Notes under the pieces: model-generated
The model's database searches: none
The model's input: only the letters and a program-made list of their open reading frames with translations
What the model was told of the DNA's origin: nothing
Position numbers and translations under genes: made by a program
Part shown: positions 8,724 to 17,281 of the stretch, one piece after another
How the letters are laid out: each line of letters starts with the position of its first letter
Position numbering within the stretch: the first letter of the stretch is position 1
Assembly (NCBI GenBank): GCA_947630155.1
Contig: CANRGM010000002.1
Span: forward strand, 1 to 44,003
Direction: 5' to 3'
Length of the DNA: 44,003 bases
From: an uncultured Clostridia bacterium
GTDB taxonomy: Bacteria > Bacillota > Clostridia > TANB77 > CAG-508

Positions 8724-8822
8724 AAAATTTCCTCCTTATAAGTTTTCGTATAGTTTTAATATACAGTAAAATGCGAAATTTGTCAAATTTTTGGGGGTGG
8801 GGAGGTGCTTTTTTGGGGGGCC

Positions 8823-8981
8823 GTCCAATTTACTAATTATGTAACACCATTAAATATATTAACATTCCGTTCGTTTGCTGGCGTGGGGATTTGGGAGGAA
8901 GACGTGGGGTGGGGGCGCCAAACTGCGCACTCCACTTCATGTTAATATATTTAATGGTGTTACATAATTAGTAAATTGGAC
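8823..8981. repeat. 159-bp hairpin element, copy 1 (non-autonomous element or structured RNA)
   Basis: Perfect 43-bp arms 8823-8865 and 8939-8981 around a 73-nt G-rich core; second copy at 43685. Confidence 0.9.
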
Positions 8982-9066
8982 TACTCTACTGTTGGGGGGT
9001 GGAGAGTAACTAAGGGGGAAGAAAAAAATGTTAATAAAAGTGTGATTTGTAGAATAAATATTAAAT

Positions 9067-10391: not shown

Positions 10392-10498
10392 AATATCACT
10401 TCCTTTTTACTCCATATAATATATTTTATGATTTTGATTTATATTAGATTACAGATTTTGAAAAAATTAGTATTATTTTGTCTACTTTTAGTCTGTAT

Positions 10499-10577
10499 TT
10501 GTTGTCAATGGGGACGGAGATTTTTGACACACCTTTTTATTTATTGTGTCAAAAATCTCCGTCCCCATTGACAACAA
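10499..10577. repeat. REP/REPIN-like long hairpin
   Basis: Perfect 33-bp arms TTGTTGTCAATGGGGACGGAGATTTTTGACACA with a 13-nt loop, between divergent genes. Confidence 0.85.
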
Positions 10578-10707
10578 TTTTAAAAGAAAAAAATAAAAGA
10601 AGTATTGTAATAAAATCAACCTTATGATATGATTTCATCAAGGTTTAGTGTGGCTAACTAAAGATAAAATTAAAACAAACATAACAAAAGAAAGGGGAGA
10701 TTAAATA

Positions 10708-13700
10708 ATGAAAAAAGTGCTAAGATTTATGATTGTCATTAGCATTTTATTTTCTTTATTGGCTGGGAATATCTCGGCAATTGCTGTTAATGTTGAAAAT
10801 GATAATACATTACAAAGTACAAGCAGTAAAGAAAATGAAAATGCAAATAACAATGAAAAGGATACAGCAACAGATGATACTAATGAAAGTGAACCAAAAG
10901 ATGATGCTAATGAAAGTGAACAAACAGATAATTCTAATGGTAGTGTAACAACAGATTCAAGTGATAATTCAAACCAAAGTACAGATCAAGAAAATTCAGG
11001 TGAAGGCAATGATGACAAAGTATCTGAAGAGACAAGCTCTGGCAATGAAGATAATAATGAGTCTGATGAAGTGAGTTCAAAATCAACAAGTAGTTCAACT
11101 AATGGAACAGAAAATAATAATTATACTAATAAAGGTACAAGAAACATAAGTACACAAGAAAATGAAAACTTAAATCAAATAAGTAATTCTATAGAAGAAC
11201 CTGAAATAAAAACTGGAAAACTCTTTATTAATATAGATTTAAGATTACCACAGAGTCAACCAGATTTAAATGTTAGCCTAAACAAACAACATACTTCTGA
11301 TTATGAAAAAATTACAGAAAAGTCATATGATGGTGAAAAAGCATATTATACATATGATAATTTAAATCCAGGGATATATATTTTATCTATAAGTGGAAAT
11401 GGATATCAAAAATTTACCCAAAATATTGAAATACAGGAAAATATGACATCAGAACTAAGCCTTATTAATGGACATGATAGTGATAATTTATCAATAGTGG
11501 AATCAAAGCAAGTTGGTGTGATTGGAATTGGAGATATTTATCCAAATGGTCAGCCAGATGGAATAATAAATTCAAATGATGAAACAGAAATGGTCAACCA
11601 AATTGAAAGTAGAAAATATAATTCTAAATATGATTTAAATCAAGATGGAAAAATAGATATTATAGATTTATCTTATATTTCAATAAATAAAGATAAGGGA
11701 TATACAGGAGGTAAAATTTCGTATATAGCAAATATAGATTTAGCTGAAGCTAAAATAACATCTGATATAGGCGTTGTAGAAGAAACAAATGGTACATTAG
11801 AAGATTTATTAAAGAATAATGAAAAATATGTAACTTTGAAACCAACACAAGGAGAAATTTCATCTGTAAATCCTGTAGAAATTACTTTAGATTTAGGGGA
11901 AAATAATGCTCCTTCAGAAGCTATTACAATTGCTCCATCTGCAAATTCTGAAAATAATATAGAAAGTGGTATAGTTACAGTTGAAACTGTTGAGGGAGAT
12001 ATAATAGAAGCTAAAATAGCAAAGAATACTATAGATGCTATAAAAAATAATTTAGCAACTATAAATAGTGAAAATGTTATGGCAAATAATAATAAACCAT
12101 TATATAAAATTGCTACATTAGGTGATACACCAATTGCATTAAAAGCAGAAACTACAAAAGCTGAAACAAATGCATTGGTTACTATAGATAATGATGGTAC
12201 TATTGTAATAAATTTAGGAAATAAAGTTGCAGTAAAGAAAGTTACAATAAAAGTAACAGGAACTAAAAGTAATAAATTAGCAGATATATCAAAAGTAGAA
12301 TTTTTAAATGGAATGGATGATAGAATTCCAGCACCACAACTAGATATTCCTACAAATGTTACAGGAATTCCAGGTAGTGAGCAATTTACTGTATCATGGG
12401 ATAGTATGAAAAATGTAACAGGTTATGAAGTATCTATTACATCTAATGGAATAACAGAGCATATTATTGCAGAAGGTCATACTGTAACAATAGAAAGTTT
12501 CAATAATGATAAAATTGTAAATTATACAGAATATGAAGTAAAAGTTCAATCTATAAATGGTGAGTGGAAGAGTGGATATAGTAGAGCAATTAAAGTAACA
12601 CCAAAACCAGATAATAGACCAGAACCACCAGATAATTTGAAGCTTACAGGTGGCAATAAGGAAATTTCTGCTACATGGAAAAATATGAAAAGCACACAAT
12701 CATACAATGTATATTATAGATTATATGAAACAGGTAATTACATAAAAGTTGCAGAAAATATTCCAACAAATAGTTATACAATTACAGGTTTAGCTGAAAA
12801 AGAGAAATATCAAGTATATGTAACAGGTGTTAATGAATTGGGTGAAAGTAAACCATCAATAGTTAGTGTTGCAGAAACATCAGTTATTGAACCTGCAAAA
12901 CTGCCAAAATATAAATTAATTAATACAGCAACAGAAGAAGGTAAGGTAACAAATCATATTACTAATGCAACATTAAATAAGTGGAGTATGGTTGATAGTC
13001 CATTAGATTCAGGAAAAACTGCATTAGGTGTTGTGGATAATAATTTCCGTTCATATTATCAAGCAGATGATTGGGATGTTGGTGGACATTATACAGGTGA
13101 AAAAACACCTACAATAGAATTTGATAATTATTATACAATGAGTTATTTTACAATGGCACAAATTGAAAATTTAGGATCAATTGAAAAAGCTCATGTAATG
13201 TATTGGGACAAATCAGGAAATAAAAAATTAGTAGAAGCATCACAGGTAGTTACAAGAAAAGATGATAACGGAAGAGATTATACTGTTATAAAACTTGATG
13301 AGCCTATAACTACAAATAAAATAAATATAGGTGTTGGTAGAGGTTCATCATACATAAGAAAGATTACTATTGCTGAAATGTGTTTCTATTATGATGATTC
13401 ACTTGAAAGAGATATAAATGCATTATATGCAGACCAAATGCATGTAACATTAAAAGATAATGTAACAAGCGCTACAATAGATGAATTACAAAAAAGATTA
13501 GATACACCTGATGAAGTAAGTGGAGAATATAATCCAGAAAAAGAAAATCTTCAAAAAGAAATTGATACAGCAAGAGAGATATTAAATAATAAAAACTTAA
13601 ATAAAGCTGTACAAATAGATACAACTGTAACATCTGCAAAAGATGGACATATTACATTTAAAGGTGGATTAAATGCTTGGCAACCATTAGGAGTTGTTGC

Positions 13701-16332
13701 ACATGGTGGAGAAACTATTACAATTTATGTAGGAAATCCAAACAAAAAAATAGGAGATAATACAAACTTACAATTAATTTCAACTCAATACCATCCAGAA
13801 GCAGCATATTGGAAGAGTAATTCTACTCCAACATTAAAGGTTGGTAAAAATGAAATAACTATTCCAAAAATTGGAAGCTTGGATACAGAAAGTGGAGGTT
13901 CTTTGTATATTAATTATACAGGAAATAACCCAAATGAGGTTTATGGTGTTAGAGTAAGTGGTGGTCATGAAATTCCAGTATTAGATTTAACAAAGGTAAC
14001 TACTGAACAAGATAAAAAGACAGCTGTTAAAACTTATGTTGAAGAATTGGAAAAGGTAGTTCCACAAATTGAAAGCGAACACAATAAGGTTCATAAAGGA
14101 AGCGGAAAATCTGAAATAGATCGTAACTATGTTGAAAAAGATTGTATACTTGGTGCAACAGAAATAGTTTTAGATCAAATGATGTATTCTGTATCATCAA
14201 AGAGAATACTTGCAGGCTTAGGTGATGGAACAATAGATGAAAAAACAGAAAAATTATATAATTCATTAGTAGCAATGAGTGATATGGTAGATTTATTCTA
14301 TTCTCATAAAGGATTAACTAAAGATCCTGAAGCAGAAAAAATAAATCAATATCCATCAAGTAGATTAAATATTCGTTATCATAGAATGTTCGCAGGTGCA
14401 TTTATGTATGCTGGAGGACAACATATTGGTATTGAATGGAATGAAGTTGCAGGATTATCACAAGGAAATCCAATAGTAACAAATGCACAAGGAAAATATG
14501 TATCAGGGAATTATTTTGGATGGGGAATTGCCCATGAAATTGGACATATCATAAATGAAAGTGCTTATGTACATGCCGAAGTTACAAATAACTATTTCTC
14601 AGTATTAGCACAAGCACAAGATACAAATGAATCAGTAAGATTCCAATATCCAGAAGTATACAAAAAAGTTACATCAGGAACAATTGGAAAAGCTTCAAAT
14701 GTATTTACTCAATTAGGTTTATATTGGCAATTACACTTAGCTTATGATAAAGGTGGATATAACTTTAAAATGTTTAACACATATCAAGAACAATATAATA
14801 ACTTAGTATTCTCAAGAATGGATACATATGCAAGAATGTACGCAAGTTTAAGTGCAAAGGATAAACCTGCAGGAGTAAAGGTTGAAGAAGGAAATGCAAT
14901 TGGATTAGTTTTAGATTCAAATTCAGATAATAATTTAATGAGATTAGCTTGTGCAGCAACTAAGAAAAACTTACTAGAATTCTTCGAAAGATGGGGAATG
15001 GTTCCAAATGAACAAACTATAGCATTTGCAGAACAATTTGAAAAAGAAACTAAAGCAATCTACTATATAAATGATGAAGCAAGAGCATATCAATTAGCAA
15101 AGAAATCTGCAATGGTTTCAGGAACAACAGTAGTTGCTTCATTAGAAAAAGAGGATAACAGCAATCAAGTAAAAATTAAATTAGGAAATAATAATCAATC
15201 AGCAAACTCAGAAGCAATGTTAGGATATGAAATAATCAGAAGTTATTGGGATAATGATAAAGAAGTTTCAAGACCAGTAGCATTTGTAACTGCTGATAAC
15301 ACAGAATATATAGATACAATTGAAACTGTAAACAATAGAGTATTTACATATAAAGTTATAGGATATGATAAATATCTAAATGAAACTAAAGAGTTAGTAT
15401 TAGATCCAGTAAAAGTATCACATGATGGAAGTCTTGGAAAAGATGATTGGGTAATAGAAACAAACTTAGTTTCTGATGAGGATTCTACACAAGATGCAGA
15501 TGACAATTCTGGAACACCATGTGAACCAGAAAAGGTAAAAGCAATTTCAAAAATAGCTAATAAAGATTATAGTGATGATTATGAAGGAACAGCTCCAAAT
15601 AATCAAAATGGAGAAATTATAATATCTTTAGATGAAGTTAAAACTTTAGTTGGACTAAAATATAAAGCTGGTAATGTTAGAGCAATTACAGATTATGAAA
15701 TTCAAATAAGTACAGATAAATCAAATTGGGAAACAGTAAAAGTAGGTAAATTTAGATTAGATGATAACAAAACACAAACTGTCTACTTTAACAAAGATAA
15801 TGATGACAGACTATATACATATAGAGCATCATATGTAAAACTTGTAATAACTGATCAAAAAGTAGTTTCCATTGCAGAATTAGATTTACTTGGTGAAACA
15901 GGTGATAATGTAGAATTAGTACCTAATGGAATTGGTAAATTAACTTCAGATTTACAATATGGAACTAAAGAGCAAGTTATTCCAGCAGGATCTATTGTAT
16001 TTACAGGAACTTATAAAGGTAACCCAGCTTATAATGTTGTAAAACTATGGAATGAGAATAATGAAATAGTTGAAGGAAGTCAAATAATATTAGCTGATGA
16101 ACCTGCTCATGGAGAATTAGGAGAAGTAAGTGAAGGTATATGGATTTACTGGATTGAGCCAACTGATACAGAAGCCTATAATAAGATTCCAAAATCAGTT
16201 AGAGCAGAATTGTATCGTGTTGATAATGCTGAAACAAATGAAGGAGAAAGATTAACAAGTGATACATTACGTGTAAGTGTACCAAGTAAATTACCTTCTA
16301 TCACACTTGATAATATAAAAACTTTAGAATAA
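10708..16332 (+). CDS. Secreted multimodular M60-like zinc metallopeptidase (dockerin-like repeat, Fn3 x2, M60 catalytic domain, F5/8-like module)
   Basis: Signal peptide; DLNQDGKIDIIDL; Fn3 patterns; WQPLG..A, GG.LY and WGIAHEIGH..EVTNN gluzincin motif. Confidence 0.85.
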   Translation: MKKVLRFMIVISILFSLLAGNISAIAVNVENDNTLQSTSSKENENANNNEKDTATDDTNESEPKDDANESEQTDNSNGSVTTDSSDNSNQSTDQENSGEGNDDKVSEETSSGNEDNNESDEVSSKSTSSSTNGTENNNYTNKGTRNISTQENENLNQISNSIEEPEIKTGKLFINIDLRLPQSQPDLNVSLNKQHTSDYEKITEKSYDGEKAYYTYDNLNPGIYILSISGNGYQKFTQNIEIQENMTSELSLINGHDSDNLSIVESKQVGVIGIGDIYPNGQPDGIINSNDETEMVNQIESRKYNSKYDLNQDGKIDIIDLSYISINKDKGYTGGKISYIANIDLAEAKITSDIGVVEETNGTLEDLLKNNEKYVTLKPTQGEISSVNPVEITLDLGENNAPSEAITIAPSANSENNIESGIVTVETVEGDIIEAKIAKNTIDAIKNNLATINSENVMANNNKPLYKIATLGDTPIALKAETTKAETNALVTIDNDGTIVINLGNKVAVKKVTIKVTGTKSNKLADISKVEFLNGMDDRIPAPQLDIPTNVTGIPGSEQFTVSWDSMKNVTGYEVSITSNGITEHIIAEGHTVTIESFNNDKIVNYTEYEVKVQSINGEWKSGYSRAIKVTPKPDNRPEPPDNLKLTGGNKEISATWKNMKSTQSYNVYYRLYETGNYIKVAENIPTNSYTITGLAEKEKYQVYVTGVNELGESKPSIVSVAETSVIEPAKLPKYKLINTATEEGKVTNHITNATLNKWSMVDSPLDSGKTALGVVDNNFRSYYQADDWDVGGHYTGEKTPTIEFDNYYTMSYFTMAQIENLGSIEKAHVMYWDKSGNKKLVEASQVVTRKDDNGRDYTVIKLDEPITTNKINIGVGRGSSYIRKITIAEMCFYYDDSLERDINALYADQMHVTLKDNVTSATIDELQKRLDTPDEVSGEYNPEKENLQKEIDTAREILNNKNLNKAVQIDTTVTSAKDGHITFKGGLNAWQPLGVVAHGGETITIYVGNPNKKIGDNTNLQLISTQYHPEAAYWKSNSTPTLKVGKNEITIPKIGSLDTESGGSLYINYTGNNPNEVYGVRVSGGHEIPVLDLTKVTTEQDKKTAVKTYVEELEKVVPQIESEHNKVHKGSGKSEIDRNYVEKDCILGATEIVLDQMMYSVSSKRILAGLGDGTIDEKTEKLYNSLVAMSDMVDLFYSHKGLTKDPEAEKINQYPSSRLNIRYHRMFAGAFMYAGGQHIGIEWNEVAGLSQGNPIVTNAQGKYVSGNYFGWGIAHEIGHIINESAYVHAEVTNNYFSVLAQAQDTNESVRFQYPEVYKKVTSGTIGKASNVFTQLGLYWQLHLAYDKGGYNFKMFNTYQEQYNNLVFSRMDTYARMYASLSAKDKPAGVKVEEGNAIGLVLDSNSDNNLMRLACAATKKNLLEFFERWGMVPNEQTIAFAEQFEKETKAIYYINDEARAYQLAKKSAMVSGTTVVASLEKEDNSNQVKIKLGNNNQSANSEAMLGYEIIRSYWDNDKEVSRPVAFVTADNTEYIDTIETVNNRVFTYKVIGYDKYLNETKELVLDPVKVSHDGSLGKDDWVIETNLVSDEDSTQDADDNSGTPCEPEKVKAISKIANKDYSDDYEGTAPNNQNGEIIISLDEVKTLVGLKYKAGNVRAITDYEIQISTDKSNWETVKVGKFRLDDNKTQTVYFNKDNDDRLYTYRASYVKLVITDQKVVSIAELDLLGETGDNVELVPNGIGKLTSDLQYGTKEQVIPAGSIVFTGTYKGNPAYNVVKLWNENNEIVEGSQIILADEPAHGELGEVSEGIWIYWIEPTDTEAYNKIPKSVRAELYRVDNAETNEGERLTSDTLRVSVPSKLPSITLDNIKTLE

Positions 16333-16363: not shown

Positions 16364-17281
16364 ATGAAATTTAAGAAATCAATTATAATAGGTATTGTAC
16401 TTCTAGTTATAGTTATTATTGCTGTTAAAAGTCAAATATCGGCTAGTAATGATGATCAAGATAATTCTGTTCCAATAGATAGAACAAGTGTAATATTAGT
16501 CAAAGATGAAAATGATGAAAAATTAATTCATGTTCGTCTAGGAATGAAAGAAGACGCAAGTGTTGCATCTTTCCAAATTGGTTTAGATTTAAATATAACA
16601 AATGATGCAGAAGTTGAATTTACATGGAGTGAAAATTTAAATGAAGAAAAATTCAAAGAGTACAGATATAACAAACCAAGCAATGATACATCAGATAGAT
16701 TAGAAAAAAGATTGAATCTATATTATGTTGGAACACAAGAATTAAATGATGGGGAAAATAATGAACTTGATATTGGAACAATCAAAATTACAGAAAATAA
16801 AGAAGCAACAGTAAAAATATCTCCAGATGCTGAATTTACAACTATTGAGTCAATAGGTTATACACCTACTGAATTAGAAATTAAAGAAGAGGATACGTTG
16901 AGTTATATAATGAATGATGAAACACCAGGAACTTCAGAAACACCAGGAACTTCAGAAACTCCAGAGACTCCAGGAACTCCAGAGACCCCAGGAACTCCAG
17001 AGACTCCAGGAACTTCAGAAACTCCAGGAACTCCAGAAACACCAGGAACACCAGGAAACCCAGGAACCACAGAAACTCCAGGAATCCCAGGAACTCCAGA
17101 AACTCCAGAAGAACAAAAGGATAAGGGAGTTGCAGGAATAATTCCAATTATATATCCAAATACAGGTATAGTTTGGGTAAATAATGTATTATTTGCAGCT
17201 GAAATAGTGGTATTTGCCGTAATAATTTTGGCTATTATACGCAGAATAAATAAAAAACAAGTAAAACGCAGTAAACATTAA
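16364..17281 (+). CDS. Surface-anchored protein: cohesin-like domain, PT-rich stalk, YPNTG sorting-like motif and TM
   Basis: Signal peptide, beta-rich domain, (E/G)TP repeats, YPNTG, hydrophobic helix, basic tail. Confidence 0.7.
   Translation: MKFKKSIIIGIVLLVIVIIAVKSQISASNDDQDNSVPIDRTSVILVKDENDEKLIHVRLGMKEDASVASFQIGLDLNITNDAEVEFTWSENLNEEKFKEYRYNKPSNDTSDRLEKRLNLYYVGTQELNDGENNELDIGTIKITENKEATVKISPDAEFTTIESIGYTPTELEIKEEDTLSYIMNDETPGTSETPGTSETPETPGTPETPGTPETPGTSETPGTPETPGTPGNPGTTETPGIPGTPETPEEQKDKGVAGIIPIIYPNTGIVWVNNVLFAAEIVVFAVIILAIIRRINKKQVKRSKH
16919..17110 (+). repeat. Coding 9-bp tandem repeat (GAA/GGA ACN CCA) encoding ETP/GTP
   Basis: About 21 degenerate 9-bp units. Confidence 0.9.

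Follow-up and report, generated by a model that had tools for sequence, protein, structure and literature searches.

The window, a 44,003-nucleotide stretch of DNA from an uncultured Clostridia bacterium, contains two copies of a dispersed hairpin element that belongs to a real and previously undescribed family. We file this family as a REPIN-like variant rather than as a member of REP/REPIN, because its size and its relation to RAYT genes depart from those of that class. Our best explanation, which we hold with roughly even confidence, is that the element is a non-autonomous mobile DNA, a very large REP/REPIN-like intergenic palindrome found in one genus of uncultured gut Clostridia. Such an element would move as folded single-stranded DNA. 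Cutting and joining would be the work of an HUH/Y1 (RAYT-type) transposase that acts in trans and recognises the GTAG/CCG foot, possibly together with the core. The arms would be re-symmetrised by template switching during replication, to which selection for a foldable single strand may add. Two features are left unexplained by a purely selfish hairpin: the conserved core with its covarying helix, and the families that share the same ends and differ in their cores. A limited search of titles and abstracts in the literature found no such element described in Clostridia.

Structure of the element in the source genome and across species

The coordinates of the two window copies and of nearby features are shown in Table 1. 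The sequence-only reading of this DNA had described two hairpins with perfect, mutually compensated arms, and the description proved accurate in every detail and far beyond chance. The repeat finder recovered the arms of copy 1 as 43 nt with 100% complementarity, 73 nt apart, and those of copy 2 as 48 nt with 96% complementarity (43685–43732 and 43796–43843), the first 43 nt being perfect. The RNA folds of the plus and minus strands had z scores of −11.9 and −11.3, and none of 200 shuffles (0/200) was as good. The two copies form a direct repeat of 190 nt with 87% identity (8804–8993 and 43666–43855). They lie in the same orientation, with GGGGGCC on the left and TACTCTAC on the right. In a base-by-base reading, the left arms differed at 7 of 43 positions, and every one of these differences was mirrored in the right arm as a Watson–Crick pair; the cores were identical at 67 of 73 positions. 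The conserved unit is slightly wider than first proposed and extends over 8810–8992 in copy 1 (copy 2 in Table 1).

Table 1. Positions in the window of the two copies of the element and of neighbouring features
Feature	Positions	Strand	Evidence or remark
Copy 1, left terminus, conserved (T-run, G-run, CCG at the hairpin foot)	8810–8822	+	16-copy alignment A1
Copy 1, left arm of stem P1, 43 nt	8823–8865	+	Repeat finder, A1, RNAalifold
Copy 1, core, 73 nt	8866–8938	+	Invariant columns in A1; same blocks in other species
Copy 1, right arm of P1	8939–8981	+	Repeat finder, RNAalifold
Copy 1, right end TACTCTAC(TG); its minus strand has the GTAG tag at the palindrome's 5' foot	8982–8992	+	A1, other species
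Different repeat: inverted pair of ~29-nt hairpin units carrying GGGGACGG	10486–10590	.	Inverted repeat; also found beside the Y1 gene of G016
Copy 2, whole conserved unit; arms 43685–43727 and 43801–43843, core 43728–43800	43672–43854	+	
Promoter-like site of the downstream gene, TTGACT-17-TATTAT	43914–43942	+	Outside the element

The genome that holds the window (G000) has 1,147,388 bases in 101 contigs, with 28.3% G+C and an estimated completeness of 99.3%. We found 17 distinct loci of the element in these 1.15 Mb, and the proposal of a dispersed REPIN/MITE-like family was borne out. Fifteen loci hold canonical copies; one copy (C83) has unrelated outer arms, and another (C74) is a 239-nt variant in which a longer hairpin replaces the G-rich middle of the core. 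Repeats of this kind break assemblies, and many copies lie at contig ends. A 77-nt fragment that ends contig C60 is the left part of the copy that starts C82, so that the assembly is broken there by the repeat, and several other copies are found within a few hundred bases of contig ends.

Alignment A1, made with 16 copies, defined a conserved unit of about 183 nt, from TTTTGCAG…CCG to CTACTCTAC(AG). Similarity fades upstream of TTTTGCAG in the 16 left ends and after CTACTCTRY in 25 right ends. The unit begins with a T/G-rich left end that finishes in CCG, followed by a long stem, an invariant inner stem, the core of about 73 nt, and the right end CTACTCTAC; the stem of free sequence spans 20–43 bp. 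In the left arm of copy 1, the outer part and a 4-nt block are variable and the inner ATATATTAA block is invariant. In the core of this copy, a G-rich middle that varies separates two invariant blocks, TTCGTTCGTTTGCTGGCG on the 5' side and …GCGCCAAACTGCGCAC… on the 3' side. RNAalifold predicted 61 pairs on A1, and in 23 of them at least one copy had changed on both sides with the pairing kept.

We also read 26 elements from 20 genomes to compare the anatomy across species. Constant features were the CCG of the 5' foot, the inner stem (ATATATTAA / TTAATATAT), and two blocks of the core, one 5' (…CCGTTC·TTGCTGG…) and one 3' (…CCAAACTGCGC··TCAC·TGCAT). The 3' foot carries CTACTCTAC, which reads GTAGAGTAG on the minus strand, so that GTAG stands immediately at the palindrome's 5' foot. 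This right-end tag was present in 16/16 aligned copies of G000, with the variants TATTCTAC and a degenerate form in C83, and in most of the 26 elements from the 20 other genomes. The minus-strand GTAG pointed out in the sequence-only reading is therefore a conserved feature of the hairpin foot in the species whose elements were read. The sequence and length of the outer stem are free: the arms differ by species and the core is constant. The middle of the core is about 30 nt at its shortest and more than 100 nt at its longest, and in many elements it forms a hairpin of its own.

A short helix in the core covaries. The 5 nt before TTGCTGG pair with the 5 nt after CTGCGC, as GTGAC/GTCAC in six elements, CAGAC/GTCTG in two, GTGCC/GGCAC in one, and ATGAC/GTCAT in one. 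The commonest form, GTTCC/GTCAC, accounted for 28 of 168 in a count whose automatic register is imperfect for the G000 type, and it keeps two central pyrimidine mismatches. As single-stranded DNA, the isolated 73-nt core was only as stable as its shuffles (z 0.07–0.43), so its conservation is mostly one of sequence and not of a strong fold. Two other candidates for the core were rejected: a small ORF, since the reading frames differ by eye between the two window copies, and a G-quadruplex, since the G-tracts are not conserved among the copies in A1.

Distribution, turnover, and families with the same ends

Among 29 other genomes of the genus, BLAST searches detected the element in 8, the distant matches covering only the core and the inner stem; 31 genomes of the family or order from outside the genus had none. 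With a covariance model derived from A1, matches appeared in 19 of the 29 genomes. There were dozens in G003, G016, G024, G027, G012, and G029 and single weak ones in some others, in counts that include weaker reverse-strand matches of the same hairpins. An exact-motif scan of 185,579 species genomes returned at least 113 stretches. The 80 stretches listed all had titles of uncultured Clostridia, "Clostridium sp.", "Lachnospiraceae", Bacillota, or uncultured bacterium, and where a host was named the source was gut or rumen (goat, rabbit, Hadza, chicken, deer). Phage and plasmid collections and a motif scan of viral contigs had no match to the element. Together with their sister families, these repeats make up a visible share of the intergenic DNA in very small genomes of gut Clostridia.

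Copies of the element are gained and lost between species. The sequence-only reading had advised looking for empty sites in related strains, and the locus of copy 2 was empty in 5/5 relatives (G003, G016, G024, G027, and G012), this copy being private to G000 among the six genomes compared. The empty sites keep both the last part of the gene upstream and the promoter downstream; because of this conservation, the promoter-like site next to copy 2 (Table 1) is not considered part of the element. In G016, the closest species, 7 of the 17 G000 loci are filled and 10 are private to G000; likewise, 10 of 17 G016 copies examined are private to G016. Clean filled/empty pairs were obtained at three loci: filled in G016:C6 and empty in G000 C25:108-117, filled in G000 C37 and empty in G016:C1, and filled in G000 C16 and empty in G016:C8. 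Four more loci are empty in G000 and filled in a relative (two in G003, one in G012, and one in G024). Four DNA runs mapped on 41000–44003 had no joint skipping the element.

The inserted blocks measure about 215–230 nt and consist of the 183-nt unit with 15–20 nt on the left and 20–35 nt on the right that are poorly conserved. The statement that no target duplication accompanies the element agrees with the three clean pairs, which had no consistent one; a possible 10-nt repeat was seen at one junction and none at the other clean junctions, in between-species intergenic alignments that, at 80–93% identity, are too noisy to fix the exact ends and the target.

G000 contains two or more further families that have the same ends (GTGCTTTTGCAG····CCGTC … GACTACTCTRY). 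One is the 239-nt variant, and the other is a family of about 270 nt and about 20 copies, whose long arms are its own and whose conserved core differs. One site between genes has the 239-nt variant in G016 and a member of another family with the same ends in G000. A third, unrelated repeat, formed by GGGGACGG hairpin pairs such as the one at 10486–10590, is also dispersed and sometimes lies inside other families; it is the candidate substrate of the transposases of the genus.

The sharing of GTAG/CCG ends by families A, A2, and B, which carry different conserved cores, raises the idea of a new class of modular hairpin elements, an idea that we regard as rather unlikely. The ends would be a mobility module, and the cores would be exchangeable cargo that acts as RNA or as protein-binding DNA. 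Insertion would be directed to existing copies or to the T-tract that follows terminators, so that one site could come to carry A2 in one species while a second species carries B there. The palindrome would repair its own arms by template switching, with no dedicated transposase next to any copy. If the cores are functional modules, these families would show how a mobile hairpin can carry a small functional unit to many genes.

Arm symmetry, strand, and gene context

We made a stem census of 166 distinct elements by local alignment of the left arm to the reverse complement of the right arm; the median stem was 41 bp. The census gave 6273 Watson–Crick pairs, 45 G.T on the plus strand, 45 A.C (equal to G.T on the minus strand), 104 transversion mismatches, and 65 gaps, and 91 of the 166 stems were perfect. 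Selection on an RNA stem should produce an excess of wobble pairs and an asymmetry between strands. Neither was seen. The earlier suggestion of complementarity kept at the level of DNA rather than in an RNA stem was supported, both by the lack of wobble excess and by symmetric changes in orthologues.

Seven orthologous pairs from G000 and G016 were compared. Identity was 95.2% in the element (1139/1196), 91.4% in the 70-nt flanks (837/916), and 93.9% in farther flanks (6119/6518). Symmetric changes of the arms involved 2 bp in one pair, 5 bp and one deleted bp in another, and 3 bp in a third; a single unpaired arm position was noted by eye among the orthologous copies. By our estimate, the arm sequence drifts at about the neutral rate, with both arms changing together. 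Several of the symmetric changes are transversions or an indel, so no wobble intermediate is possible for them. The simplest cause of the symmetry would be templating from arm to arm, as in template switching at quasipalindromes, and PMC7202029 and PMC8604942 report that template switching homogenises the arms of inverted repeats. Whole-element gene conversion from other copies is possible as a contributor and could mimic arm-to-arm templating; some derived arm variants, however, are absent among the 16 aligned G000 copies. The orthologous copies are a natural record of symmetric arm evolution and could make the self-correction of bacterial palindromes measurable.

An RNA reading takes the element to be mainly a multicopy small RNA or a cis-acting UTR hairpin involved in mRNA stability or processing, with DNA mobility only as its means of spread. 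Once transcribed, REP, ERIC, and Correia elements have effects of this kind. We judge this reading unlikely. In favor of an RNA are the core conserved across species, its covarying short helix, and the variable terminal hairpin. The hairpin folds better as RNA on the plus strand (−94 kcal/mol) than on the minus strand (−75.2 kcal/mol), and PMC3733652 regards many REPs as plausibly transcribed. In G000, the gene downstream shares the orientation of the element in 13 of 14 cases, and the gene upstream does so in 8 of 15. Where the orientations agree, the copy often begins no more than about 25 nt from the stop codon or terminator upstream; by eye, the left end of many copies directly adjoins the T-tract of that terminator.

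In the relatives, the downstream gene was co-oriented at 17 of 28 loci and opposed at 11, and both neighbors were opposed at 8. No sigma-70 promoter or intrinsic terminator of its own was predicted in or at the element, and no promoter is disrupted by the two window copies. The equal counts of G.T and A.C in the census, below those of transversion mismatches, and the stability of the core, equal to that of its shuffles, also count against an RNA. A perfect RNA duplex of 43 bp would be a substrate of RNase III. The window had no Rfam match at gathering thresholds (0), and a relaxed search gave only generic plant and animal miRNA long-hairpin matches, at 48 bits against a threshold of 150. The sister families had the same outcome in Rfam, and the tRNA/tmRNA search found none. 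With no wobble preference, no promoter or terminator of its own, and no Rfam match, the structured ncRNA that the sequence-only reading had proposed as an alternative receives little support.

The genes downstream of the copies, judged from their N-termini, are topoisomerase-like, truA-like, gatA-like, pheT-like, and Hsp33-like, a P-type ATPase, and others. A riboswitch or leader was excluded because these genes are functionally unrelated.

All 17 copies in G000 have the G-rich strand of the core on the strand of positive GC skew. Among the matches listed, the stretches from other genomes were 82 with positive skew, 32 with negative skew, and 3 ambiguous, and 8 of 11 hand-picked cases had clearly negative skew. 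A strict replication-strand rule, which holds in G000, was therefore rejected, failing as it does elsewhere. The bias to the G-rich (leading) strand is real and not absolute; it is inseparable from gene orientation, because the gene calls are simple ORF calls. G-runs of at least five are enriched about 15-fold within 150 nt of the copies, always on the same strand: 17 of the 236 G-runs outside elements fall in the 0.47% of the genome near copies.

Another possibility is a DNA site useful to the host, for example, one where a protein reads the core at the tip of a cruciform. Selection would act at each locus, and recombination between copies would spread the site. The 5' core block, unchanged in 7/7 orthologous pairs against 91.4% identity in the 70-nt flanks, fits such a site, as do the persistence of the element across the genus, the A2 and B members found at the same intergenic site in two species, and the three families with the same ends. 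We nevertheless find it decidedly unlikely: neighboring genes are functionally unrelated, turnover is fast (10 of 17 loci private to each of two close species), the identity of the element (95.2%) is close to that of the coding flanks (93.9%), and no candidate binding protein was identified.

Transposase genes and comparison with known systems

The window has no transposase, in agreement with the sequence-only reading. In the G000 assembly, the Y1 domain PF01797 is absent, and so are the RT, IS110, and TnpB domains. PF01797 was found in 20 of the 29 other genomes of the genus, mostly in single open frames of about 240–275 aa. Three Y1 representatives scored best on NF047646, "REP-associated tyrosine transposase" (78.6, 60.3, and 67.3 bits, with a cut-off of 80), and pass Pfam Y1_Tnp. 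In G016, the Y1 gene adjoins glmM-like and metG-like genes, and the same spot in G000 falls in a gap that separates the ends of contigs C96 and C15. Because the syntenic site falls in a contig gap, the G000 genome probably has a Y1 gene that was left unassembled.

Inverted hairpin repeats with GGGGACGG or GGGGACAC lie on both sides of the Y1 genes in this genus, and these repeats are themselves dispersed in the genome. A GGGGAC-type inverted repeat different from the element was present on both sides of 8/8 RAYT-like genes inspected, and the search of 14 Y1 loci of the genus found no element within about 1.5–3 kb. Presence of a Y1 gene does not track that of the element (14 of 20 element-positive genomes and 6 of 10 element-negative ones), and no Y1 gene was found in the high-copy genomes G003 and G027. 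Membership of the REP/RAYT system, the earlier idea, is not established: RAYT-like genes do occur in the genus, but the repeat beside them is another one in all eight genes inspected and none of the 14 loci lies near the element. We also considered a link of the left end to the transposase-flanking repeat through a shared CCGTCC, and rejected it, as the two do not change together across species. We infer that the element is mobilised by a Y1 enzyme.

The element could instead be an ordinary MITE, with arms that are the terminal inverted repeats of a DDE transposon moved by cut-and-paste. Its long inverted arms, small size, intergenic location, and many copies would suit a MITE, which we still consider very improbable. 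The outer arms vary from copy to copy, and the ends (…TTTTGCAG…CCG and CTACTCTAC) lie outside the arms and are not mutually inverted. The arms change between species while the core stays constant, and the three clean filled/empty pairs lack a consistent target duplication. A search for inverted arm pairs 300–6000 nt apart found two in G000; the one that was read and one MAG pair enclose small membrane proteins and no transposase.

A folded single-strand site for a tyrosine recombinase, in the style of integron attC or of elements that exploit Xer, is more improbable still. Two conserved stem blocks, which would be the binding arms, with a hypervariable and always paired 4-nt block between them, and the variable terminal structure would speak for it. 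G000 has three tyrosine recombinase genes, and a copy lies 184 nt from one of them. Against it, the copies are dispersed singly and not in cassette arrays, only 1 of 17 is near a recombinase gene, which could be chance, and the insertion junctions share no core.

Several known families resemble the non-autonomous mobile palindrome that we prefer. Correia/NEMIS, ERIC, RUP, and bcr1 are intergenic elements of 100–180 nt with long hairpins that can act as RNA when transcribed. Their terminal inverted repeats are conserved, and they make target duplications of fixed length that go with a DDE transposase. In contrast, the element described here has arms of free sequence and conserved ends outside the arms, and no duplication was found at its junctions.

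In the portion of PMC3733652 that deals with TIRtrons, TIRYT genes are accompanied by inverted repeats with a GGGGWSAS motif, and the Y1 genes of this genus, single genes of about 220–265 aa, resemble them. The repeat of TIRtron type is unlike our element, being of a different sequence family; the two share only the CCGTCC hexamer at the element's left end, which may be chance. Template-switch mutagenesis of quasipalindromes, as described in PMC7202029 and PMC8604942, resembles our case in the multi-base, perfectly symmetric changes between orthologous copies. It differs in being a mutational process and not a family of elements, and its action here would be deduced from the pattern of changes.

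The closest comparison is with REP and REPIN. The element extends their idea to Firmicutes-type genomes, in which little of this kind has been described, and to a hairpin that is much larger and bears a core. The differences concern size and arrangement. The element has 160–240 nt, against 20–40 nt for REPs and about 70–110 nt for REPINs, and it consists of a single 43-bp stem that closes a conserved 73-nt core, and not of two short REPs. None of the RAYT-like genes inspected has the element on its flanks, and no REPtron was found. The element is often found between divergent genes and rarely between convergent ones, whereas REPs lie mostly downstream of genes according to a passage of PMC3733652.

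The likenesses are nevertheless extensive. Passages of PMC8266576, PMC6006769, and PMC3733652 present REPs as defined by a 5' GTAG and bound as folded single-stranded DNA, and a passage of PMC3116915 describes compensatory changes as common in REPIN hairpins. Like the GTAG-tagged repeats of Di Nocera et al. 2013 (PMC3733652) and the REPINs of Bertels & Rainey 2011 (PMC3116915), the element occurs between genes in many copies as a palindrome, and one of its strands has GTAG at the 5' foot. The bias of the element to one strand is a further REP-like feature. In REPs, GTAG or GTGG stands 0–2 nt 5' of the palindrome, as it does here. In both, the ends are not inverted repeats of each other, there is no consistent target duplication, and changes in the hairpin are compensated. 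In both, the repeats persist with turnover in one lineage, and RAYT-like genes occur in that lineage.

A second family with shared ends

The genome holding the window (G000) contains a second family of ~270 nt with ~20 copies: the four entered as copies in the table and ~16 more. Its conserved ends are those of the hairpin repeat family under study, but its arms are others and its conserved core is different. It had no match in Rfam. At one intergenic site, G000 has an element of the ~270-nt family and the closest species of the same genus (G016) has the 239-nt variant of the hairpin family, a longer form. This points to re-targeting of a single site, or to an exchange of inner parts between elements with common ends.

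Repeat copies and other sites
Feature	Location	Details
~270-nt family copy	G000 C19:14162-14431	
~270-nt family copy	G000 C13:19690-19959	
~270-nt family copy	G000 C31:11475-11744	
~270-nt family copy	G000 C88:935-1201	
~270-nt family member, shared site	G000 C5:22381-22640	
239-nt variant, shared site	G016 C49:32803-33041	
Inverted pair of ~29-nt hairpin units	window 10486-10590	with GGGGACGG; arms 46 nt, 87% complementary

Flanks of the elements and contig ends

T-run/G-run motifs (e.g. TTTTTGGGGG) lie beside the elements on the same strand, at 8785-8822 and 8990-9020 in the window and in the flanks of many other copies, and in some cases they repeat the left end in tandem, in degenerate form. 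Runs of at least five G were enriched ~15-fold within 150 nt of copies, and terminator T-tracts adjoin the left ends of several.

The final 25 bases of the window's contig (43979-44003) occur a second time near one end of contig C47, and C60 carries at its end the same element copy as C82 does at its start. The contigs can probably be joined at these places.

The ~29-nt repeat and the RAYT-like gene

Immediately downstream of the inverted pair is a very long ORF of 1874 aa (10708-16332). In another ORF (16364-17281), ~19 tandem repeats with a period of 9 nt (16892-17144) keep the reading frame and encode a Pro/Thr/Glu/Gly-rich stretch of a character typical of surface-protein spacers.

Further copies of the ~29-nt unit are dispersed across the genome. 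In G016, the unit occurs in inverted orientation on both flanks of a RAYT-like Y1 gene (an IS200-like tyrosine transposase). The site of this gene (L263:2787-3840) is syntenic to an assembly gap in G000, between the ends of C96 and C15, with repeats at its borders; the gene is probably present there in G000, though unassembled. The gene of G016 and its flanking units, with a GGGGWSAS-type motif, resemble the layout of a REPtron or TIRtron, in which such a gene lies between inverted repeats.
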